Shown here: piece by piece, positions 696 to 50,996 of the stretch
Numbering within the stretch: the first letter of the stretch is position 1
How the letters are laid out: each line of letters begins with the position of its first letter
IMG/VR virus record: IMGVR_UViG_3300034068_000495
Span: 1-52,678 of that record
DNA length: 52,678 bases
DNA from: a virus
Taxonomy: Duplodnaviria; Caudoviricetes
Strand: one strand, 5' to 3'
Program-made: the position numbers and the translations under genes
Notes under the pieces: generated by a model
Database searches by the model: none
What the model was told of the DNA's origin: nothing
Seen by the model: the letters and a program-made list of their open reading frames with translations, nothing else

Positions 696-775
696 AAAAC
701 TGCAAATGGGGTGTTGCAATGCTGAATTGCATATGCGAGAGAGGGTCATCAGCAACGCAGGAGACACCCGAAATG
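692..775 (+). promoter_or_regulatory. Conserved phage promoter-leader element, copy 1
   Basis: GTAAAAAACTGCA..TTGCAA(714)-N7-TTGCATATGCGAGAGAGGGTCATCAGCAACGCAGGAGACACCCGAAATG; near-identical elements at 6843, 48626, 50432. Confidence 0.85.
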
Positions 776-1490: not shown

Positions 1491-1894
1491 CCTACCGCAT
1501 CGAAATCACAGCAGACAGCCTCACCGAACTTGCCGGCCGCGTACTGGCGCTGTCCGCGCAGTTGCAGACGACCGTACCCGTGTTCGTGCATCACGCCAGC
1601 GCGGCGCCCGCCAAAGACCCGACACCAGCCAAGACCGCCGCGAACGAGATTGTGGCGCTGATGGCTGCAGCCGCCGAGCCTGTTGCGGAAGATGCCGCAC
1701 CTGAAGTTCGCGAAAATCCTGTCGCCGCACTCGACTTCGACACCGAAGTGGCACCGCACGTGCTGGAACTCGTCAAGGCCAAGGGCAAGCCGGCAGCGCA
1801 GGAGATCCTGAGCCAGTTTGGCGTCGAGAAGGCGTCGCTGCTCGACCCGGTTCGCTGGCCTGAGCTGGTCGCCACGCTGAAGGGGGCACTCTGA
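1487..1894 (+). CDS. Conserved phage protein typically preceding the Cas4-like nuclease in APSE-type modules
   Basis: Ala/Pro linker then KGKPAAQEILSQFGVEKASLL..; position in module. Confidence 0.7.
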   Translation: MTYRIEITADSLTELAGRVLALSAQLQTTVPVFVHHASAAPAKDPTPAKTAANEIVALMAAAAEPVAEDAAPEVRENPVAALDFDTEVAPHVLELVKAKGKPAAQEILSQFGVEKASLLDPVRWPELVATLKGAL

Positions 1895-3120
1895 TGGCGC
1901 ACGCCAAGCTGAGCCCGTCGGGGGCGCACCGCTGGCTGCGCTGCCCCGGCAGCGTCGTCCTTGAGGCTCCGTACCCGGACACGAGCAGCATTTACGCCCG
2001 TGAAGGCACCGCCGCGCACGAGCTGTCCGCCATGGTCCTCGAGAACGAGGATGCAGACGCGCAGGGCTACGTCGGCTACAAGATCGAGTTCGACGACAAC
2101 GACGAAGTCGTGCAGTGGCTCGTCACGAAAGACATGGCCGACTACGTCGACGACTACGTCAAGCTCGTGCGCGACATGGCCGAGGGCAAGACGCTCTTGG
2201 TCGAGCGTCGGTTGCCCATCGACCACCTGACCGGCGAGGACGGGGCCACTGGCACCAGCGACGCCGTGATCGTGGACACGACGGGGAACAACCTGACCAT
2301 CATCGACCTGAAGTACGGCATGGGCCGCGTCGTTGCGCAGGATAACCCGCAGCTCATGATGTACGCCCTCGGTGCCTTGGAGGAGTATTCCATTCTGGGC
2401 GACTTCGCTACCATCAGCATGTACATCCACATGCCGCGCCTGAACTTCGTCAGCGAGTGGCACGTGCCGACCGAGGAGCTGCTGGCCGACGGTGAAGACA
2501 TCCGCAAGGGGGCGCAGATGTGCCGCGCGGCCGAGGACGAGGATCCGACGACCCTGAGCGAGTTCCTTGAGCCGGGCGAGGCGCAGTGCCGGTTCTGCAA
2601 GGCCAAGTCGACGTGCCCGGCGCTGCGCGCCGAGATGACGGACGTGGTGGGTGGCGACGCGGCGTGCACGCTTGACGAGTTTGCGGAGTTCTTGCCTGAG
2701 ACGGTCGACACCGCCACCGGCGACAACTACCTGCCGATGGCCATGGCCAAGGTCGATCTGGTCGAGGCGTGGTGCAAGTCGGTCCGCGCCGAGGTCGAGC
2801 GTCGCCTGCTTGCCGGGCAGAAGGTCGACGGCTACAAGCTGGTCGAGGGCAAGCGCGGCAACCGCAAGTGGGGCAGCGAGGCCGAAGTCGAGGGCCTGCT
2901 GAAATCGTTCCGCATGCGGCAGGATGAGATGTATGACTTCAGCCTGATCTCGCCGACGACTGCCGAGAAGGTATTAAAGCAAAACCCCACGCGCTGGGCC
3001 AAGGTCAAAGAGCTGATCACCCAGAGCACGGGCAAACCATCTGTGGCACCCGCCACGGATAAGCGGCCAGAACTGGTCGTTCCATCGGTCGCTGCAGATT
3101 TCAGCGACCTCATCAACTGA
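1894..3120 (+). CDS. Cas4-like PD-(D/E)xK exonuclease (DUF2800-type)
   Basis: HAKLSPSGAHRWLRCPGS, GTAAHEL, GTSDAVI, IIDLKYG, NPQLMMYALG, CRFCKAKSTCP. Confidence 0.9.
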   Translation: MAHAKLSPSGAHRWLRCPGSVVLEAPYPDTSSIYAREGTAAHELSAMVLENEDADAQGYVGYKIEFDDNDEVVQWLVTKDMADYVDDYVKLVRDMAEGKTLLVERRLPIDHLTGEDGATGTSDAVIVDTTGNNLTIIDLKYGMGRVVAQDNPQLMMYALGALEEYSILGDFATISMYIHMPRLNFVSEWHVPTEELLADGEDIRKGAQMCRAAEDEDPTTLSEFLEPGEAQCRFCKAKSTCPALRAEMTDVVGGDAACTLDEFAEFLPETVDTATGDNYLPMAMAKVDLVEAWCKSVRAEVERRLLAGQKVDGYKLVEGKRGNRKWGSEAEVEGLLKSFRMRQDEMYDFSLISPTTAEKVLKQNPTRWAKVKELITQSTGKPSVAPATDKRPELVVPSVAADFSDLIN

Positions 3121-3136
3121 CAACTGGAGATTTGAT

Positions 3137-3727
3137 ATGACTGCCAAGACACAAATCATGCTGAAGAACGTCGTCCTCGCGTTCCCGTCGATTGCCGAGC
3201 CGCAGGCCTTCGGTGAAGGCGAACCGGCCTATGGGGCAAAGTTCCCCATCAAGCCGAACTCCGAACACCACAAGGCCATCGAAGCCGCCATTCTCTTGGT
3301 CGCCAAGGAGGAGTGGAAGGACAAGGCGGACAGCGTACTTGAGATGCTGGTCGACGACGGCAAAGTTGCCTTCACCAAGAAGGTCTACAAGTCGAAGAAG
3401 ACCGGCGACGCATACGCGGGTTTCGAGGGCATGCACTACCTGTCCAGCCGCAACGCCAAGACCCAGCCTACCGTGTTCGACAAGTACGGTGAGCCTGTCG
3501 TCGGCAAGGCTGCCATCGAGCAGCAGGCGCACAGTGGCGCCGTGGCCAACGCCTCGCTCGAAATCTGGGCGCAGGACAACAAGTGGGGTCGCCGCATCAA
3601 CTGCTCGCTGCGCGGCGTCATGCTGACCGGCGAGGGCGAGAGCTTCGGTGGCGGATCGGCTCCGGCCGGCGCTGACGAGTTCGCGGCGTTCGCCAAGGCC
3701 AAGGCCGACGCGGCAGACATCCTGTGA
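3137..3727 (+). CDS. Single-stranded DNA-binding protein (DUF2815-type)
   Basis: [29 protein letters not shown], acidic/aromatic tail; between Cas4-like gene and polA. Confidence 0.85.
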
Positions 3728-3978
3728 TCGAAGCCGGTCACAACGCGGCCGACGACCGGCTGCGGCTCCTGATCGAGCGTGTTGAGACGCTCGAAGAGGA
3801 GAAGAAGGGTGTCATGGACGACATTAAGGACGTCTACGGCGAGGCGAAGGCCGTCGGCTATGACGTCAAGATCCTGAAGCAGATCGTCCGTCTGCGGAAG
3901 ATGGAGGCCGACGACAGGCGCGAGATGGAGACCATTCTCGACCTGTACAAGGCGGCCCTTGGCATGGATCTGCTGTAG
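3724..3978 (+). CDS. gapR: GapR (DUF2312/UPF0335) nucleoid-associated protein homologue
   Basis: [55 protein letters not shown] is the family signature. Confidence 0.9.
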
Positions 3979-3987
3979 GGCTATAGG
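3959..3987 (+). promoter_or_regulatory. Sigma70-type promoter
   Basis: TTGGCA (3959-3964), 17 nt spacer, TATAGG (3982-3987) directly upstream of a structured non-coding region. Confidence 0.55.
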
Positions 3988-3989
3988 GC

Positions 3990-4102
3990 GGGCGCGGGCG
4001 GTGAGCCGTCCGTGCCCTCCTTTCAGGCGGGCCGTGCTGCGCGTGGGGTGTCCCTCCCTTCGTTGCTGATAACTTCGCGGCACGGCCCACCTGAACGGAG
4101 GG
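3990..4102 (+). ncRNA. Structured leader / candidate antisense RNA
   Basis: 5' hairpin (about 3990-4017) plus 27-bp stem (4015-4041 with 4076-4102) enclosing a 34-nt loop complementary to the repeated early leaders. Confidence 0.6.
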
Positions 4103-4108
4103 ACCAAC

Positions 4109-4402
4109 ATGAAACGCACAATTCCAGAAATCCGCGAACTGATCGCCGCCTTGACCGAGGAGAGCAAGGTGCTCGCCCGGCGGCAGCTCTACATCGCGCA
4201 GAAGATCAACAAGCTGGCGCAGGAGACGCGCCGCCGGAGCTACGACCGCGCGCCGGTGACCAGTCGCCGCGTGACGGCGGCGGTGCGGGCGTCTGTGCGC
4301 CAGATGGCCGCCGACTTCCCCGACATGTCCTACCAGTCGCTGGCGGAGGCGCACGACATCAACATCGGCCGTGTCAGCGAGACACTGCACGGGAAGCGTT
4401 GA
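4109..4402 (+). CDS. Coiled-coil plus C-terminal HTH DNA-binding protein
   Basis: PDMSYQSLAEAHDINIGRVSETL is an HTH pattern; SD GGAGGG at 4097-4102. Confidence 0.7.
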   Translation: MKRTIPEIRELIAALTEESKVLARRQLYIAQKINKLAQETRRRSYDRAPVTSRRVTAAVRASVRQMAADFPDMSYQSLAEAHDINIGRVSETLHGKR

Positions 4403-6366
4403 TGTCGACGCTGTGGCTGGACCTCGAAACCTACAGCACGACCCCCATCAAGCAGGGCGCGCACAGGTACGCCGAGGCAGCCGAGGTGTTGCTGGTGGCC
4501 GTCGCACTGGACGACGAGCCGGTAGCGGTCTGGGACACGCAGGACCGGCCAGACTGGCGCTTCGACCTGCAGCGCCTCATCAACGACGCCGACACCATCG
4601 TCATCCACAACAGCGCGTTCGACCGGACGGTGCTGCGCCACAACGGCGTGCACGTACCCGTGGAGAAGATCGAGGACACGATGGTCATCGCGCTCGCGCA
4701 CAGCCTGCCGGCGTCGCTGGGCAGCCTCTGCGACGTGCTGGGCGTACCGCAAGATAAGGCTAAAGACAAAGCCGGTCGACGGTTTATACAGCTATTCACG
4801 AAGCCGTGTCCCAAGAACTGGAAAACCCGGCGCGCAACACGGGAGACACACCCAGATGAGTGGACAGCCTTCATCGAATACGCCCGTCTCGATGTGGACG
4901 CGATGCGAAACATACATGGACGCATGCCGGCTTGGAACAATTCACACGGTGAGCGGCACCTTTGGGGACTTGACCAAAGAATTAACGACCGTGGTGTCGC
5001 CATCGATCTTCAGTTCGCAGGCGCCGCAATTCGAGCTTTTCAACGAGCTACACGATCTCTGGCCGCTCGTGCGTCCCATCTGACCGGGGGCGACGTGTCG
5101 TCGACGACGCAGCGCCAGCGCTTCCTCGACTACATGCGCGACGCCCGGGGCTTCGAGACGGAGGACCTGACCAAGGGCACCGTGGAGACGCTGCTCAAGG
5201 GCACGCTGGACCCGCACGTCCGCGAGCTGCTGGAGATCCGCCAGCAGGCCTCAGCCACGTCACCGGCGAAGTTCGGCGTCCTGATCGGCTCGACGTCCAC
5301 CGACGGCCGCCTGCGCGGCACCGTGCAGTTCTGCGGCGCCGGGCGCACCGGCCGCGACGCGGGGCGGATATTCCAGCCCCAGAACCTGCCGCGTTCGCCC
5401 GACTGGTTCGACGGGGACGTGCAGGAGGCCACGATTGCGGCGTTCAAGTACGACTGCGAGGACATCATATACGACAATGTCAGCGAGCGCTGCGCCTTCG
5501 CCGTGCGCGGCGCGCTGGTGGCCGAGCCCGGCAACAAGCTCGTCATTGCCGACCTGTCGAACATCGAGGGCCGCGTACTGGCGTGGCTGGCGGACGAGCG
5601 GTGGAAGATCGAGGCGTTCAAGCTGTATGATCGCGGCGAGGGGCCCGACCTGTACAAGGTCACCGCAGGCGTCATCCTCGGCAAAGATCCGCAGGAGGTC
5701 ACCAAGGCCGAGCGCCAGACGCAGGGCAAGGTGCCCGAGTTGGCTGGGGGCTACGGTGGCGGGCTGGGCGCGTACCGCAAGATGGGCGGCGACGTGTTCA
5801 ACGCCATGGACGACGACGAGATCATGACAATCGTGCGCGGCTGGCGCAAGGCACACCCGGCGACGAAGAAGCTGTGGTACGACGTCGAGGGCGCCGTCCG
5901 TTCGGCGGTGCTCACGCCCGGCGACAGCTTCGACGTGCGCGGCCTGCTGCGGGTAGACACGGCGAGCGGCCCCGACACCGTCGGCTACGTCCGCATCCGC
6001 CTGCCGAGCGGCCGCTATCTCTGCTACCGCAACCTGCACAAGGATGACGCGGGCAAGCTGCTGTATGAGGGCGTCGACCAGTACACACGCCAGTGGAAGC
6101 TGCTGGAGACGTACTACGGCAAGCTGGTGGAGAATGTCGTGCAGGCAATCGCCCGCGACGTCTTCATGACCGGCCTGCGCAAGGCCGAGGAGGCTGGCTA
6201 CCCGGTCGTCCTGCGCGTGCATGATGAACTGGTTTGCGAGGTGCCGGACGACCCGTCGTTTACCGACGCGGCGTTGTCGGCTATGATGTCCACCAACCCA
6301 AGCTGGGCAATCGGCCTGCCACTGGCGGCGGCGGGGTTTGAGGCGCGGCGCTATAGGAAGGGTTGA
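4402..6366 (+). CDS. polA: DNA polymerase family A (phage, with 3'-5' exonuclease)
   Basis: WLDLETYS, HNSAFDR, QPQNLPR, ADLSNIEGRVLAW, GKVPELAGGYG, RVHDELV; ATG 4402 overlaps upstream TGA. Confidence 0.95.
   Translation: MSTLWLDLETYSTTPIKQGAHRYAEAAEVLLVAVALDDEPVAVWDTQDRPDWRFDLQRLINDADTIVIHNSAFDRTVLRHNGVHVPVEKIEDTMVIALAHSLPASLGSLCDVLGVPQDKAKDKAGRRFIQLFTKPCPKNWKTRRATRETHPDEWTAFIEYARLDVDAMRNIHGRMPAWNNSHGERHLWGLDQRINDRGVAIDLQFAGAAIRAFQRATRSLAARASHLTGGDVSSTTQRQRFLDYMRDARGFETEDLTKGTVETLLKGTLDPHVRELLEIRQQASATSPAKFGVLIGSTSTDGRLRGTVQFCGAGRTGRDAGRIFQPQNLPRSPDWFDGDVQEATIAAFKYDCEDIIYDNVSERCAFAVRGALVAEPGNKLVIADLSNIEGRVLAWLADERWKIEAFKLYDRGEGPDLYKVTAGVILGKDPQEVTKAERQTQGKVPELAGGYGGGLGAYRKMGGDVFNAMDDDEIMTIVRGWRKAHPATKKLWYDVEGAVRSAVLTPGDSFDVRGLLRVDTASGPDTVGYVRIRLPSGRYLCYRNLHKDDAGKLLYEGVDQYTRQWKLLETYYGKLVENVVQAIARDVFMTGLRKAEEAGYPVVLRVHDELVCEVPDDPSFTDAALSAMMSTNPSWAIGLPLAAAGFEARRYRKG
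4856..5083 (+). CDS. Candidate overprinted gene (75 aa) in the +1 frame of polA
   Basis: Leader GCAACACGGGAGACAC..ATG like early genes; polA third-position GC collapses over this ORF and recovers at its stop. Confidence 0.55.
   Translation: MSGQPSSNTPVSMWTRCETYMDACRLGTIHTVSGTFGDLTKELTTVVSPSIFSSQAPQFELFNELHDLWPLVRPI
6259..6287 (+). promoter_or_regulatory. Sigma70-type promoter inside the 3' end of polA
   Basis: TTTACC-17 nt-TATGAT. Confidence 0.45.
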
Positions 6367-6563: not shown

Positions 6564-6856
6564 CCCCCGCCAGCAAGCTGCAGGACCACCTGAAGAAGCT
6601 CGTGCAGGGCAGCGGGGGCCAGTACCGCAAGGTGCGCTGGGAGAACCGCAACGGGTGCCCTGACTGCTACATCTGGTGGACGTGGCCGCGCGCCGCCTTC
6701 GTGGAGGTCAAGGCCGACGGCGACCGTCTCAGCGGCCACCAGCAGCGCGAGATCGAGCGCATGCGGGCCGACGGCGTCCCGGTGTTCATCGCCCGGTCGA
6801 TGGAGGACATCGACGATATCGTGAAAATAGTTAGGGAGGGGGGTTGCAACCTCTGA
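6560..6856 (+). CDS. VRR-NUC domain nuclease
   Basis: GCPDC..AAFVEVKADGDRLSGHQ..EIERM...G.PVFI. Confidence 0.88.
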   Translation: MTPASKLQDHLKKLVQGSGGQYRKVRWENRNGCPDCYIWWTWPRAAFVEVKADGDRLSGHQQREIERMRADGVPVFIARSMEDIDDIVKIVREGGCNL

Positions 6857-6908
6857 TTGCATGTGCGAGAAGGGTTCATCAGCAACGCAAACAGGGACTA
6901 AGCAAATG
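6843..6908 (+). promoter_or_regulatory. Conserved phage promoter-leader element, copy 2
   Basis: TTGCAA(6844)-N7-TTGCATGTGCGAGAAGGGTTCATCAGCAACGCAAACAGGGACTAAGCAAATG. Confidence 0.85.
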
Positions 6909-9402: not shown

Positions 9403-10822
9403 CCTGAAACATCCTGCGCACAGGCTTGCCGAGTAACTCCGCGATCTTGTACCGAGCGTCATCTGGCGAGCTAGAAGTGCGCCAGATGTCCGAGACGGCT
9501 TGTTTCAATTCTGCTGTTTTCTTGTTTTGACCCCACAAATCTCTAACACCTTCCCACGTTGCTGATTGCACTTCGCGGGGTGCGCTGAAGCCCATCTCCC
9601 TCGCGGCCAGAGTGTGCATGTCGGACAAGGGGCCATAAAGCCCTTTTGAGCCGGTGACTGCGCTGTCGGCAGCGCCGGGTGCGCCACCAGCACCGGGGCC
9701 AAGACCCATACCTCGGTACACAATGGGGTCGTCACCACCGCCGGGAAACAGGCTGGCGGCCCCCGCGCTGTGCGTGTCAATCGTTGAGATTGGCGCTTCG
9801 CTATAGGGATTGGCGATGTTGTTGTAGAATGACGGAACTTTGCCGCCACCCAAAAGTTGCGAGTTGATGCTCTCGATGGATGGGTTATCCATGATGCTCA
9901 ACGCTTTGGAAATGACATCGCCGCTACCCCATGTGATGTTGCTGTACGGGTCGCCATACTCGCCGGACAGGTTGATGCGGTTTACCATCGGGTCGTTTCG
10001 CGTCGCGTCGGCGAGGGAAACGCGCGCAAACTTGGCAAACTTGTCGGGCAGTTCTTCGTAAGGCATCGCCGCAATTCTTGCGGCGTAGTCCGGCCCGAGT
10101 TTCGCAATGGCGCCCGGGGTTTTCATGTTTGCAATTCGGTTTTCGATGTACCGGCGCGCTTCTTGCGGATCGACAGAAAAGCGATCTTTGTACATGTCCA
10201 TGAGGCGATCAAGTCTGCCGACATTGATGTCCCACGGGGTTTGCGGCGATGTTACCGCAGCCACGCCGTACCCGGCTTCTGGCGGAAGCCCCGCGCGTGC
10301 TGCCGCTCTTTCAGAGACAAGTTTTGCCGTGGGGTACCAGCCGCGAGCTGCTTCAACTTTTTCAGCCGGCATCAAGTCGTTCATGATGAACTTGAGATTG
10401 TCCGCGCCTCGGCGAAGGCTTTCCGCGTAAATGGTTTCGGGGTCCAGCCCTTCAGTTCCGCGCATGAACGGTTCTTCGGAGAGCATCCGCATGTTGGTGC
10501 CAAATGCCTTTGGCGCAGCCCGCAACGCTTCCCCGCTTTGAATAAGGAGCTGCTCGTCAGGGTTTCCTGAGACACCGTAGTTGGGCGGAGTGGGGCGCCG
10601 CGTGCTTACCATGTGCGGGCTTTCGGCTCCGGCGAGTTGTGCTCGGGTCCGAACAGCCAGAGGTGCCTTGGCGCGTGCGGCTGCCTTGGCCACCGGCGCA
10701 GCCGCCTTAGCAGCGCGTGCCGCTGGCTTGGCAACCTTCGCGGCAGCCTCCACCAACTTAGCGGCCTCCTCGGCCTTCTTTGCCGCTTTGGCGGCCTTTA
10801 CGGCGAAGCTCATGATACCCAT
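9395..10822 (-). CDS. Putative virion cargo protein with HhH DNA-glycosylase-like domain
   Basis: Start 10822 coupled to upstream TAA; Ala/Lys-rich N-terminus; GWY..A, AVTSPQTPW..N, KVPSFYNNI, TIDTH, EVQSATW motifs. Confidence 0.55.
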   Translation of the reverse strand: MGIMSFAVKAAKAAKKAEEAAKLVEAAAKVAKPAARAAKAAAPVAKAAARAKAPLAVRTRAQLAGAESPHMVSTRRPTPPNYGVSGNPDEQLLIQSGEALRAAPKAFGTNMRMLSEEPFMRGTEGLDPETIYAESLRRGADNLKFIMNDLMPAEKVEAARGWYPTAKLVSERAAARAGLPPEAGYGVAAVTSPQTPWDINVGRLDRLMDMYKDRFSVDPQEARRYIENRIANMKTPGAIAKLGPDYAARIAAMPYEELPDKFAKFARVSLADATRNDPMVNRINLSGEYGDPYSNITWGSGDVISKALSIMDNPSIESINSQLLGGGKVPSFYNNIANPYSEAPISTIDTHSAGAASLFPGGGDDPIVYRGMGLGPGAGGAPGAADSAVTGSKGLYGPLSDMHTLAAREMGFSAPREVQSATWEGVRDLWGQNKKTAELKQAVSDIWRTSSSPDDARYKIAELLGKPVRRMFQVK

Positions 10823-48625: not shown

Positions 48626-48708
48626 GTAAAAAACTGCATATACCCTATTGCAACCCATGCTTGCATGTGCGAGAAGGGCTCATCAGCAACACAGGAGACA
48701 CCGACATG
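48626..48708 (+). promoter_or_regulatory. Conserved phage promoter-leader element, copy 3
   Basis: GTAAAAAACTGCA..TTGCAA(48648)-N7-TTGCATGTGCGAGAAGGGCTCATCAGCAACACAGGAGACACCGACATG. Confidence 0.85.
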
Positions 48709-49201: not shown

Positions 49202-49435
49202 ATGCGCTTCGGAGACATCACCATCAACAGCGACCGCTTCGGCACCACGCTCACGCACCACGCCGAGCGCCGCAGCCTCTACTTCCAGCCGGGAGACGAG
49301 GCGGGCGACCTGCACGACGCGCTGGAGGCCACTGAGGCCGCGCTGGAGGCCAGCGGCGTCACCTACACCTACGCCGACGTCCTCGCGGCCGTGTGGGACG
49401 ACTACAGGGACGCAGGACAGGAGGTTGAGGCATGA
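49202..49435 (+). CDS. Early hypothetical protein (77 aa)
   Basis: Leader ACAGGAGACACCACCATG. Confidence 0.75.
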   Translation: MRFGDITINSDRFGTTLTHHAERRSLYFQPGDEAGDLHDALEATEAALEASGVTYTYADVLAAVWDDYRDAGQEVEA

Positions 49436-49980
49436 GCGACTACCGCATCAAGATCTCGATCAGCAACGGCCGCATCCTCCGGCTGATGGACGATGCGGGC
49501 ATCGAGACGCAGACCGAGTTGGCCCGCCGCGCGGGCATGGGGGTGGTAGCCGTCAACGCCATCGTCAAGATGCGCGACCTGCCGAAGCTGCAGAACGGCG
49601 ACTGGCGTGACGCGGTGCAGCGCATCGCGGCAGTGCTAGGCGTGGCCCCCGAGGAGATGTTCACCGACACGCAGGCCAACGGCACCCTCGAAAAGAGCAC
49701 CTTCGAGACCGGCCTGACCGAGGCGCAGATGGGCAGCCTGTGTGGCCCCGACGCCGTCACGCAGCTCGAGGAACAGGACATGGTGGCCCACCTCATGATG
49801 GAACTGCCAGACCGCGAACGGCGTGTGATCACGGCGCGCATGGAGGGCGACACGCTTGCGGAGGTCGGGCTGAAGATAGGCACCCAAGCGGAGCGCGTGC
49901 GCCAGCTCGAGGCGAGGGCGATCCGCCACATGCGGAGGCAGGCGCACCGCCTCAACATCCGCGCCGATGACGCTTTCTAG
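49432..49980 (+). CDS. XRE-type HTH fused to sigma70 region-4-like domain
   Basis: TQTELARRAGMG..RIAAVLGV.PEEMF; LPDRERRVI..TLAEVG..G...ERVRQLEARAIRHMR. Confidence 0.8.
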   Translation: MSDYRIKISISNGRILRLMDDAGIETQTELARRAGMGVVAVNAIVKMRDLPKLQNGDWRDAVQRIAAVLGVAPEEMFTDTQANGTLEKSTFETGLTEAQMGSLCGPDAVTQLEEQDMVAHLMMELPDRERRVITARMEGDTLAEVGLKIGTQAERVRQLEARAIRHMRRQAHRLNIRADDAF

Positions 49981-50007: not shown

Positions 50008-50424
50008 ATGATCAGCAAGAAGATAACCACCCTCGTGGAGCAGGCGACCGACGACCGGGTGCTGTACCACCTGCGCCGCGCCCTCAGCGCCGCCCTCCAG
50101 TCGGAGGAGGTGAAGCCGATACCGACCAACATCGAGCTGGCAGACCGCAACTGGTCCATCTGGCGCGACCACTATGTCAACAACGTCAACAAGGCTGATC
50201 TGGCCCGGCAGCACGACATCACGAAGAGCCGCATAACTGGCATACTGGGCAAACAGATGCGCCGCGTCGTGTACGTGATAGGCTGGGATCGCGGGCACTA
50301 TGGCAGGCCGATGCGAGAGGCACTGCTGGGCGTCGAGGTCGTCTGGCGGGCGGGCGAGCCTGACTATTTGCGCATGCCAGACGGCCGCGAGGTCCTGTTC
50401 AACGGCATGCCCTACGACCGATAA
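50008..50424 (+). CDS. HTH DNA-binding protein
   Basis: RNWSIW..NKADLARQHDITKSRITGIL; leader ACAGGAGACACCGACATG. Confidence 0.7.
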   Translation: MISKKITTLVEQATDDRVLYHLRRALSAALQSEEVKPIPTNIELADRNWSIWRDHYVNNVNKADLARQHDITKSRITGILGKQMRRVVYVIGWDRGHYGRPMREALLGVEVVWRAGEPDYLRMPDGREVLFNGMPYDR

Positions 50425-50431
50425 ATTAGCT

Positions 50432-50493
50432 GTTGCAACCTGTGATTGCATGTGCGAGAAAGGCTCATCAGCAACCAAGGAGACACCGACATG
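50432..50493 (+). promoter_or_regulatory. Conserved phage promoter-leader element, copy 4
   Basis: TTGCAA(50433)-N7-TTGCATGTGCGAGAAAGGCTCATCAGCAACCAAGGAGACACCGACATG. Confidence 0.85.
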
Positions 50494-50715
50494 ACGATCA
50501 TATCGAACCCGGCCTACCTCGCCGCCGTAGACCAAGCCATGGATGTACGCGAGGCGGCGTTTGATGCGGCCAATGAGACCTACGCCGCCGATTGGCAGAG
50601 CAATCGAAGCGCCGCCATAAAGGCTCGCGTTGCCGCCTATAAGGTAGCTGACAAAACATTCGCAGCGGCCTGCGCCGCAGCCGCCGAAGCGGTTTTCTCC
50701 GCAGCCGCGAAGTAA
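50491..50715 (+). CDS. Ala-rich early protein (74 aa)
   Basis: ATG after conserved leader. Confidence 0.7.
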   Translation: MTIISNPAYLAAVDQAMDVREAAFDAANETYAADWQSNRSAAIKARVAAYKVADKTFAAACAAAAEAVFSAAAK

Positions 50716-50729
50716 GGGACACCAACACC

Positions 50730-50996
50730 ATGACGATCACGCCCACCCTCAACGTCAACGGCACCAGCGCCGCCGACCTCATCGACCCGCGCCGCGCCGC
50801 CTTCGACCACCTGACCAAGGCCATCGACAGCCTGCGGCAGGTCACGCCGAACGGCCGCGACTATCCCGGCAACGCCGAGCGCTGCGACGCAGACCGGCGC
50901 GAGCACTTCGACCGCATCCTGACGCTCAACGCGCTCCGCGAGCAGATTTACGCCGAGGCCGTCGCCATCAACCGCAACAAGGGAGACGCAGCATGA
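50730..50996 (+). CDS. Early hypothetical protein (88 aa)
   Basis: PTLNVNGTS..L..PNGRDY; typical codon bias. Confidence 0.75.
   Translation: MTITPTLNVNGTSAADLIDPRRAAFDHLTKAIDSLRQVTPNGRDYPGNAERCDADRREHFDRILTLNALREQIYAEAVAINRNKGDAA

Follow-up and report, generated by a model that had tools for sequence, protein, structure and literature searches.

A hairpin in the leader of a phage polymerase operon whose loop is complementary to the 5' leaders of four other genes of the phage

Described antisense systems and the present locus

That single phage genes can be under antisense control was recognized decades ago (P22 sar, lambda OOP, P1 c4), and a whole regulon of a phage is known to be repressed at translation by a protein, RegA of T4. 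RNA-OUT of IS10 folds into a long stem topped by a recognition loop; its pairing begins between this loop and the extreme 5' end of the target. In the account given by PMC5006887, the IS10/Tn10 RNA-OUT is antisense to the transposase mRNA (RNA-IN), covers its initiation region and blocks ribosome binding; it is cis-encoded opposite its single target, is perfectly complementary to it over 35 nt, and is a discrete 69-nt transcript. The locus reported here belongs to a complete 52.7-kb phage genome of lake water origin (52,678 nt, referred to below as the window). It is similar to RNA-OUT in having a stable stem, a covarying one in our case, and a loop complementary to leaders from their nt 1 up to the start codon. 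Unlike RNA-OUT, the hairpin is kilobases away from its putative targets, is complementary to at least four different leaders over interrupted stretches of 20-23 bp, lacks a terminator and is fused to an mRNA. It is not encoded opposite a target with long perfect complementarity, as RNA-OUT is; the targets lie 2.8 to ~7 kb from it on the circularly read map and on the same strand, and the longest perfect match is 10 nt.

Short stretches in the loops of the c4 RNA match target sites that overlap the ribosome-binding site, and the RNA is cut from the same transcript by tRNA-like processing; matched changes of RNA and target between the c4 of P1 and that of P7 result in heteroimmunity. As presented in PMC8201110 (citing Citron and Schuster 1990), c4 of the P1/P7 immI operon is an antisense RNA of phage origin whose gene does not face its target and which controls ant translation via icd. 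The three loop/leader classes found in our material resemble this heteroimmunity; however, c4 has one target operon, located downstream in its own transcript, and serves lysogenic immunity, whereas several dispersed operons are concerned here. A c4-type arrangement would have the precursor and the target in one transcript; in 26 of 34 distinct relatives, but not in the window, the loop does match the initiation region of the next gene, which may or may not reflect such an arrangement. ARAGORN reports 0 genes, that is, no tRNA-like processing signal, and no integrase was found in the subset of ORFs scanned.

According to PMC3014915, about 30 early and middle mRNAs of T4 have initiation regions for which RegA and the ribosome compete, and gp43 of T4/RB69 represses its own mRNA via a hairpin operator overlapping the ribosome-binding site. 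The logic of both proteins, an early initiation-region regulon and a hairpin covering the ribosome-binding site at the head of the polymerase operon, would be combined here in one element; however, the repressors of T4 are proteins, the specificity element proposed by us is an RNA loop, and there is no relation in sequence or structure. The polymerase of our phage is of family A and unrelated to gp43, and the sequestered Shine-Dalgarno sequence lies upstream of a gene coupled to polA. Multi-target trans-acting sRNAs with C/U-rich anti-Shine-Dalgarno loops are also known, such as the alphaproteobacterial AbcR and the staphylococcal RNAIII/RsaE. They share with the present case the scheme of one RNA for many mRNAs and the placing of the seed, anti-Shine-Dalgarno part included, in an unpaired loop. 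Those RNAs are host-encoded, end with an intrinsic terminator and have targets without a dedicated 5'-terminal tag, whereas our hairpin has no terminator, and its targets would be the phage's own operons, all with the same 9-mer at +1. We found no prior description of an anti-leader hairpin in full-text searches of the literature or in Rfam, nor in the main text of a 2025 review of phage sRNAs (38 more sRNAs are given in its supplementary tables).

The leader of the 97-aa/polA operon

The hairpin region (3979-4108) is flanked by a GapR-like gene on the 5' side and by the gene of a 97-aa HTH protein on the 3' side; the features are listed in Table 1. The DNA of the phage is present in 20 sequencing runs, every one a lake-water metagenome. 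No RNA run is listed as containing it, and its words are nearly absent from three metatranscriptome runs of related samples; neither is evidence either way on expression. The host class suggested by the data is Alphaproteobacteria, as the GapR-like gene, alone among the genes, matches phages of these bacteria. For the 97-aa protein, no relative was found in the genome collection searched for prophages and host or among the cultured phages of the phage collection. Its matches in Pfam and NCBIfam are all sub-threshold and indicate no solid family, and the PDB search yields weak HTH-type matches (E = 0.018 and 0.26). The stop codon of this gene shares one base with the start of polA (4400-4404), which reads as translational coupling.

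Table 1. Features of the hairpin locus and of the leaders complementary to its loop
Feature	Position	Strand	Basis or remarks
Promoter-like element: TTGGCA (3959-3964), 17-nt spacer, TATAGG (3982-3987)	3959-3987	+	Read from sequence
Hairpin 1, ~12 bp, 4-nt loop	3990-4017	+	RNA fold; 3990-4001 pairs with 4006-4017
Hairpin 2, 5' arm; pyrimidine-rich base pairs with the Shine-Dalgarno region of the 97-aa gene	4015-4041	+	Inverted-repeat search, fold
Hairpin 2, loop, 34 nt (putative anti-leader domain)	4042-4075	+	Complementarity to four leaders
Parts of the loop: anti-Shine-Dalgarno part; invariant core	~4047-4058; 4061-4071	+	Complementarity to leaders; comparison of relatives
Hairpin 2, 3' arm; holds the Shine-Dalgarno of the 97-aa gene (~4097-4102)	4076-4102	+	Sequence, inverted repeat, relatives
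97-aa gene; N-terminal part coiled-coil-like, C-terminal part HTH-like	4109-4402	+	phrog_23243, E = 1.5e-14; alignments
polA, family A polymerase	4402-6366	+	Sequence search
Leader 1, predicted +1 of promoter copy 1 to start codon 773 (55-aa gene)	748-775	+	Duplex with loop -32.4 kcal/mol, accessibility-corrected -21.3, from nt 748
Leader 2, to start codon 6906 (143-aa gene)	6878-6908	+	Corrected -12.4 kcal/mol, from nt 6878
Leader 3, to start codon 48706 (145-aa gene, phrog_19789)	48682-48708	+	Corrected -17.6 kcal/mol
Leader 4, to start codon 50491 (74-aa gene)	50467-50493	+	Corrected -16.9 kcal/mol
Possible fifth target, translation-initiation region of the gene starting at 50730	50701-50733	+	Complements the 5' half of the loop; without the 9-mer

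An earlier note on this DNA described the promoter-like element, a 5' hairpin and the 27-bp stem; all three were recovered from the sequence, the fold and the inverted-repeat search. The arms of hairpin 2 are 27 nt long, 89% complementary and 34 nt apart; it is the longest among the 8 local inverted repeats of at least 16 nt in the whole genome and the only one longer than 19 nt. The fold of 3979-4125 has an energy of -78 kcal/mol (z = -3.76), and none of 200 shuffles is as good. Both hairpins are retained with compensatory changes in 31 distinct uncultured relatives (identical sequences were collapsed before counts, and locus L004 was left unaligned as a duplicate of L003). In both hairpins together, 97.2% of the cells are paired versus 84.5 +/- 1.2 in shuffles (0/500 reach the observed value), and the slid-alignment controls give 40-50%. 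For hairpin 2, the comparison of 12 distinct sequences yields 21 stem pairs with 100% of cells paired and 7 pairs changed on both sides; over the 31 distinct sequences, double changes occur at 10 of 24 predicted pairs. The stem letters of hairpin 1 are almost all different in relatives, yet the pairing is kept, with 6 of the 7 aligned pairs changed on both sides. Upstream of distant homologues of the 97-aa gene (33-41% identity; L109, L133-L138) there is no comparable hairpin.

Judging by these sequence data, 3979-4108 is a real RNA element, and it is one without an Rfam match: no family of Rfam release 15 reaches its gathering threshold anywhere in the window. When E values as high as 10 are admitted, only two models turn up in 3850-4250, one of a microRNA precursor (both strands, 27.6 bits against a gathering score of 97) and one of a snoRNA (15.7 bits); these sub-threshold matches are generic hairpin noise. 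A repeat or mobile-element reading was rejected, as the hairpin is single-copy; among the matches listed, no repeat of at least 14 nt of the hairpin region occurs elsewhere in two related genomes (G011 and G012).

The earlier note considered the hairpin to be a separate RNA gene with its own promoter. The first part of this claim had to be abandoned. There are 0 terminator-like sites in 3700-4400, and the 3' arm contains the Shine-Dalgarno of the next gene, the start codon of which is 6 nt past this arm; therefore, the hairpin RNA is the 5' UTR of the 97-aa/polA operon. Hairpin 1 does not qualify as an intrinsic (Rho-independent) terminator: its stem is GC-rich but lacks a T-run, and no site passes the scan. 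It is followed by a pyrimidine-rich tract with T only scattered, which is at the same time the 5' arm of hairpin 2. Hairpin 1 would be either the 5'-terminal stem-loop of a transcript that starts at about 3994 or a 3' structure for upstream read-through.

The second part of the claim, the promoter, may stand as a putative one on the ground of its conservation, although the standard search does not back it. Straddling the stop codon of the GapR-like gene, the element is kept where the DNA is non-coding: in relatives, TTGG.. and TA.... stand exactly 17 nt apart in 37 of the 39 distinct regions upstream, and TATA is read in 35 of those 37. We presume on this basis that 3959-3987 functions as a promoter. 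It is missed by a simple sigma-70 consensus scan, since its second hexamer does not end in T.

Complementarity and covariation of loop and leaders

The loop segment 4062-4070 is the exact reverse complement of a 9-mer starting at 748, 6878, 48682 and 50467, and the exact match extends to 10 nt for leader copies 1 and 2. A second block of the loop complements the stretch adjacent to the Shine-Dalgarno of copies 1, 3 and 4, and the second match of copy 2 is found at the identical N5 spacing. All these matches had been pointed out in the earlier note and proved correct. The loop also complements the Shine-Dalgarno itself and its phage-specific flank. In total, the 9-mer is present 7 times in the window against 0.36 expected, a count reached in 0/100 shuffles. 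The copy at 49459 (+) is coding and lies within the sigma-like gene. The copy at 9558 (-) has a short flank in common with the loop copy; it was rejected as a second element, being inside a 507-aa minus-strand ORF. The loop could also be read as a minus-strand leader, but no start codon is found at leader distance in the window or in relatives, and this reading was rejected as well.

The mean duplex energy of the loop on the four leaders is -29.9 kcal/mol versus -16.0 +/- 2.5 for 500 shuffled loops, none of which is as good; thus, the leaders outrank the shuffled controls. The loop is partly self-paired, and its opening costs 8.9 kcal/mol. The corrected pairing energies are between -12.4 and -21.3 kcal/mol, the duplex begins at nt 1 of each leader, and the predicted pairing stays within the loop, so that the stem is not invaded. 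The RNAcofold values for the hairpin RNA with each leader (ddG from -0.8 to -4.3 kcal/mol) were discarded as uninformative, since a nested model cannot put an intermolecular helix inside a hairpin loop; duplex plus opening energies were used instead. The expectation that the four leaders are the top targets was borne out in part. Among 192 candidate translation-initiation regions (TIRs), the two leaders included in the set rank 2nd and 7th, and leaders 2 and 4, which were excluded from the set by the TIR filter and scored separately, would be at about the 3rd and 11th places. In a naive duplex scan over all 40-nt windows of this GC-rich genome, the best leader is only 13th.

The same 9-mer heads leaders in 10/10 related records searched, with 3-10 copies in each versus 0-1 in the reversed control, and it is invariant as the 5' end of 2-6 leaders per record in all ten. 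It is always directly 5' of a Shine-Dalgarno and a start codon, at about +1 of promoters with differing -10 regions. Four copies lie between cistrons without a visible promoter (G004:4572, G002:36814, G005:15247, G009:2119), which is a pointer to an RNA-level signal.

The core of the loop is unchanged in 38 of the 46 mapped relatives, and the other 8 form two changed classes: one clade with two transitions (7/46 mapped loci) and one record with a 1-nt insertion. Both classes are represented by whole records, G012 for the transitions and G011 for the insertion. On the sense strand, the complement of the own loop core is found 4 times in G012 (3 leader-like), 3 times in G011 (2 leader-like) and 5 times in the window (4 leader-like). 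All six cross combinations of a loop core with the genome of another class yield 0 sense-strand matches, with 0.00-0.23 expected per strand. The short loci of class 1 (n=34) contain 10 leader-like sites with the own-class complement and 0 with that of another class; for class 2 (n=5) the numbers are 1 and 0. The covariation between loop and leaders, which the earlier note named as a check of its proposal, is thereby present in relatives; for the core, it amounts to two independent events. For the variable part, only 12 of 5040 permutations (by the mean) or 66 of 5040 (by the maximum) do as well as the own loop against the own leaders. In 26 of 34 distinct relatives, a complementarity of 8-11 nt also links the loop to the stretch immediately preceding the start codon of the 97-aa gene; one pair of this complementarity covaries (CG:7, AU:3), with a matching pattern in a second lineage.

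The proposed mechanism and its rivals

We believe that the region 3959-4108 may be described as a structured RNA leader. The conserved sigma-70-like promoter would fire, and the transcript would start at about 3994 with the 5'-terminal hairpin, followed by the very stable 27-bp hairpin. The base of the latter would hide the Shine-Dalgarno of the 97-aa gene and limit polA via translational coupling. On the short leaders of early operons, the loop would pair at two places, nt 1-9/10 at the very 5' end and the Shine-Dalgarno region, and the duplex of 20-23 interrupted base pairs would stop just short of the start codon. Owing to its location at a free 5' end, the target motif could be wound into the closed loop, which occurs in the RNA-IN/RNA-OUT pairing of IS10. 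The pairing would keep the 30S off the first cistron in every early operon, and the mRNA would probably become liable to decay or polarity. A promoter-proximal early-gene regulon would be down-regulated in this way by one RNA domain, synthesized as part of the replication-operon mRNA or perhaps cut from it. That the loop is such an antisense domain, acting on the leaders in trans at the RNA level and with repression as the outcome, is in our opinion the probable explanation, although far from an assured one.

The pairing might also act both ways, silencing the promoter-proximal early genes and freeing the translation of the polymerase operon. Early operons would then bear a 5'-terminal RNA "address tag" read by one anti-tag loop in the 97-aa/polA leader, and the polymerase operon would be released via cleavage or remodelling of the 27-bp stem. 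We grant a small but real chance to such an all-RNA early-to-middle switch with at least three orthogonal tag/anti-tag pairs. If it is true, the orthogonal pairs would prevent cross-regulation among co-infecting relatives, as an RNA analogue of heteroimmunity.

Other explanations keep the hairpin and change the direction or the nature of the control. The same pairing may have its main output on the hairpin's own operon: abundant 5' ends of early mRNAs would dock in the loop, the long coaxial duplex would be cut by an RNase III-type enzyme or the stem remodelled, and the buried Shine-Dalgarno would be freed, with the 97-aa gene and polA turned on and the early mRNAs possibly inactivated too. 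The Shine-Dalgarno is indeed within the 27-bp stem (100% paired in relatives), and polA is coupled by the one-base overlap, so some opening event seems required for expression; the complementarity of the loop to the pre-start-codon bases in 26/34 relatives ties the initiation region of the operon to the loop. However, the predicted pairing is limited to the loop without stem invasion, and the window, locus L005 and both changed-core clades lack the complementarity to the own start codon, which is therefore not essential. We consider this reversed switch unlikely. The sequestration, the polA coupling and the match of the loop to its own initiation region (the same 26/34) would also suit a purely cis-acting translational operator of the 97-aa/polA operon. 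In that case the hairpin would do no more than hide the Shine-Dalgarno of its operon, possibly helped by a pseudoknot between loop and start codon or by a protein bound in the manner of T4 gp43, and the loop would descend from a duplicated leader whose similarity has been maintained by gene conversion. Concerted changes of loop and leaders are what conversion among the copies would bring about; nevertheless, repeated conversion among 25-nt inverted segments kilobases apart is unlikely without selection. Such an operator leaves unexplained both the invariance of the 9-mer at the 5' end of 2-6 leaders per record (10/10) and the joint change of loop and leaders at several loci in two clades, and it seems very improbable to us.

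A DNA-level explanation, already raised in the earlier note, takes the 9-11-bp motif for a double-stranded site of a phage or host protein, located at +1 of the early promoters and, in one inverted copy, between the palindrome arms upstream of the 97-aa gene. The promoter-linked copies do lie at a fixed 5-9 nt past the -10 region, a concerted change of all sites is also expected from a protein with a shifted specificity, and the phage encodes candidate readers, namely an HTH plus sigma-region-4-like protein and the 97-aa HTH protein. The inverted copy, however, keeps the complement of the Shine-Dalgarno and the phage-specific flank, which are superfluous for an operator, and in every case lies in the loop of a 27-bp hairpin that covaries. 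Moreover, some leader copies lie between cistrons without promoters, and the motif is single and non-palindromic at each promoter. The HTH-like C-terminal segment of the 97-aa protein, the one candidate compared, does not vary among the three motif classes, and this protein is therefore not a covarying reader of the motif. On balance, the inverted operator is disfavoured, and we regard it as quite improbable. Pairing of the leader motif with 16S rRNA, with the loop as a mimic of the rRNA, would be a poor fit to the three motif classes.

The co-change of loop and leaders points to base pairing by a single RNA as the means by which many genes of the phage would be controlled together. From inside the polymerase-operon leader, such an RNA domain would read a common 5'-terminal tag on dispersed operons and unite antisense and RegA-type control. 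The three natural loop/leader classes are ready-made compensatory mutants, which makes the antisense reading testable with reporters without culturing the host; they could also provide small orthogonal RNA regulator/target pairs. More generally, a phage clade known from metagenomes only can give a covariation-supported regulatory interaction of unlinked loci.

Two minor observations concern the limits of the target set. Among the leader-like sites with a single mismatch, 4 of 9 are wobble-compatible (G-U), 3 of those 4 at position 1, which does not bring out a tolerance of G-U pairs. The possible fifth target in Table 1, a prediction for the window, takes rank 1 of the 192 candidate TIRs with a corrected energy of -22.1 kcal/mol.

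The hairpin element and its surroundings

All the sequence elements listed in the earlier note were found where it had placed them. No local inverted repeat in the genome is longer than the one that forms hairpin 2, with arms of 27 nt that are 89% complementary and 34 nt apart. The runner-up has 19 nt; the RNA fold of 3979-4125 has an energy of -78 kcal/mol (z = -3.76), and nothing in Rfam resembles the element. Its loop contains the exact complement of the 9-mer that opens four conserved leaders (the 5' ends of early operons starting at 748, 6878, 48682 and 50467) and likewise complements their Shine-Dalgarno region. The 9-mer is counted 7 times in the genome (0.36 expected); besides the leaders and the loop, the two remaining copies fall in coding sequence. 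The structure had been presented as a separately promoted hairpin RNA. We do not retain a separate RNA gene: since the Shine-Dalgarno of the 97-aa gene lies in the 3' arm of hairpin 2 and a terminator scan of the hairpin region found none after hairpin 2, it is the 5' UTR of the 97-aa/polA operon.

Positions of the features discussed
Feature	Position	Strand	Remark
Four leader promoters	about 700-745, 6830-6875, 48640-48680, 50425-50465		
DUF2800 exonuclease	1894-3120	plus	
Enc34/gp2.5-like ssDNA-binding protein	3137-3727	plus	
GapR-like protein	3724-3978	plus	
Non-coding gap	between GapR-like gene and 97-aa gene	plus-strand module	130 bases
Hairpin 1	3990-4017		
Hairpin 2, arms	4015-4041 / 4076-4102		
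Hairpin 2, loop core	4061-4071		invariant in 38 of 46 mapped relatives
97-aa gene	4109-4402	plus	phrog_23243
Family-A DNA polymerase (polA)	4402-6366	plus	
182-aa protein	49432-49980		

The window of 52,678 bases is the entire record, with a GC content of about 63%. Early and replication genes lie on the plus strand in a block that begins at about 48.7 kb, crosses the record ends and stops at about 9.4 kb, the remainder being virion genes on the minus strand; the hairpin element is situated in the replication module. The 97-aa gene and polA are probably translationally coupled, as the stop codon of the former and the start codon of the latter share one base. The scan of ORFs (part of the total) revealed no integrase; there is no tRNA gene in the whole window, and neither a prophage relative in reference genomes nor a cultured relative was found. 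A sequencing-run search finds the phage DNA in many lake-water metagenomes. The picture is that of an uncultured freshwater clade, probably virulent, and the matches of the GapR-like gene point to an alphaproteobacterial host.

Relatives of the 97-aa protein (58-98% identity) were found in 14, then 31, IMG/VR contigs and 18 metagenome contigs; searches of 185,579 reference prokaryote genomes and of 50,697 deposited phage records found none. Both hairpins are kept in all relatives of at least 58% identity; a comparable hairpin is absent upstream at one IMG/VR locus (L109, 41% identity) and six metagenome loci (33-41%). For 13 sequences 97.2% of cells are paired, vs 84.5 +/- 1.2 in shuffles (0/500 reaching the observed value) and 40-50% in a control with the partners slid. 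In this set hairpin 2 is 100% paired, with both sides changed in 7/21 pairs, and hairpin 1 has both sides changed in 6/7; among 31 distinct sequences, double changes occur in 10 of 24 predicted pairs.

The position 4028 opposite 4089, in the middle of the otherwise perfect stem of hairpin 2, is non-Watson-Crick (C opposite A). The mismatch is kept across both main clades, being U opposite U in one subgroup, and might serve a nuclease or protein as a recognition or anti-determinant feature.

Leaders and their covariation with the loop

The same 9-mer was found in all ten related records searched (3-10 copies each vs 0-1 for the reversed control). Its non-coding copies always stand immediately 5' of a Shine-Dalgarno and a start codon; each record has 2-6 leaders of this kind. 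Promoter-linked copies lie 5-9 nt past the -10 region, i.e., at about +1, and these -10 regions vary widely; four copies in relatives lie between cistrons and show no visible promoter; what precedes them directly is a stop codon or a GC-rich hairpin. Judging by sequence, the leaders are an RNA-level feature. Two intercistronic copies (G002:36814, locus L044, and G005:15247, locus L040) directly follow a short, GC-rich hairpin whose loop is of the UUCG type; the combination may form a module for mRNA processing or stabilisation, which makes a new tag-bearing 5' end.

The earlier note expected covariation between loop and leaders in related phages, and it is present. The loop core falls into three classes among 46 mapped relatives: 38 of the window type, 7 with two transitions and 1 with a one-base insertion. 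One record per variant class was examined whole (G012, two transitions, complete, 55.9 kb; G011, insertion, a 21-kb fragment). Neither has the window's 9-mer on the sense strand; both have, at leader positions, the exact complement of their own loop core, preceded by promoters with the same architecture. Sense-strand copies of the own-core complement number five in the window (four leader-like), four in G012 (three leader-like, with further leader copies of 8-9 nt) and three in G011 (two leader-like), whereas all six cross combinations give 0 (0.00-0.23 expected). In the G012 class both substitutions, on loop and leader alike, are transitions, a path via G-U pairs. The loop complement of the Shine-Dalgarno flank also tracks each phage's own leaders: for the variable part of seven loop types, the own-vs-cross match is reached in 12/5040 permutations (mean) and 66/5040 (max), figures that are inflated by kinship among the phages. 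The core covariation comprises two independent events. We regard this covariation as the decisive result.

Pairing and mode of action

Computed hybridisation of the loop with the four leaders gives -26.7 to -34.8 kcal/mol, or -12.4 to -21.3 after subtraction of opening energies, and in every case the duplex spans nucleotide 1 of the leader to the start codon. The leaders stand out against shuffled loops (mean -29.9 vs -16.0 +/- 2.5 kcal/mol, 0/500 as good), but not genome-wide, where the best leader is 13th among all 40-nt windows; raw hybridisation energy discriminates poorly in a genome of 63% GC. Two leaders passed the filter for candidate initiation regions (192 in all) and rank 2nd and 7th; the other two, scored separately, would come about 3rd and 11th. 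The top region precedes the gene at 50730 and is a possible fifth target.

The early genes starting at 49202, 50008 and 50730 have no 9-mer, yet share the Shine-Dalgarno-plus-flank context of the leaders, so the anti-Shine-Dalgarno half of the loop could touch further genes. In the gene that starts at 50008, the start codon is directly followed by an 8/9 match to the 9-mer (50011-50019).

A DNA-binding protein with shifted specificity would likewise make all the sites change together, a reading that we disfavour. In the neighbouring 97-aa protein the HTH-like end stays the same in all three motif classes, hence this protein does not track the motif. We favour reading at the RNA level because the inverted copy occurs in the loop of a covarying hairpin and keeps the anti-Shine-Dalgarno and phage-specific flanks, because some leader copies lack a promoter, and because the loop copy is the sole antisense-oriented non-coding copy in the window. 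The loop would pair in trans with the leaders and block ribosome binding at the first cistron of each early operon; we consider this anti-leader action the most likely mechanism and reasonably probable. The first cistrons concerned are four small genes without assigned function. The burial of the Shine-Dalgarno of the 97-aa/polA operon in the stem, together with loop complementarity over 8-11 nt to the sequence directly ahead of the 97-aa start codon (seen in 26 of 34 distinct relatives and varying in a matched way in two lineages), leaves room for a reciprocal switch, in which loop-leader pairing also gates polymerase translation; the window itself lacks this complementarity, and we think such a switch rather unlikely.

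The anti-leader action would belong to a known kind of control, antisense translational control. IS10 RNA-OUT/RNA-IN is closest in architecture, although the phage element is trans-encoded and has multiple targets; P1/P7 c4 is closest within phage biology, and T4 RegA plus the gp43 operator in logic. Neither the literature searched nor a review of phage sRNAs, as far as consulted, describes a phage RNA that reads a 5' tag common to several operons of the same phage.

Promoter-like elements

Upstream of the hairpins, TTGG.., exactly 17 nt and TA.... occur in 37 of 39 distinct regions of relatives (TATA in 35 of these, a perfect TATAAT in one relative). The first hexamer lies in coding sequence, and the spacer includes the stop codon of the upstream gene. 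Presumably the element is similar to the alphaproteobacterial sigma-70 consensus. A simple scan with an E. coli-type consensus missed the site because its second hexamer ends in a base other than T. A transcription start about 7 nt downstream would place hairpin 1 at the extreme 5' end of the transcript. The two exceptions are L121 and L003. The latter, with L004 (both IMG/VR), is a natural deletion variant, altered some 130 nt ahead of the 97-aa gene: a truncated GapR-like gene is joined to hairpin 1, of which the 3' half is left, and the promoter-like element is removed, while hairpin 2 and its loop remain intact.

All four leader promoters have an inverted pentamer pair (7-nt spacer) over the -35 region and spacer, with an A-rich tract upstream. 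The pentamers have the appearance of a protein operator in its own right, added to these promoters. The 182-aa protein has an N-terminal HTH (phrog_4) and a sigma-70 region-4-like C-terminal part (phrog_351; TIGR02937 at 34.5 bits, under its cut-off); region 2 is absent from it. This protein is a candidate for reading the TTGCAA-type promoter elements. Its coding sequence contains one copy of the leader 9-mer, 27 nt in (49459).
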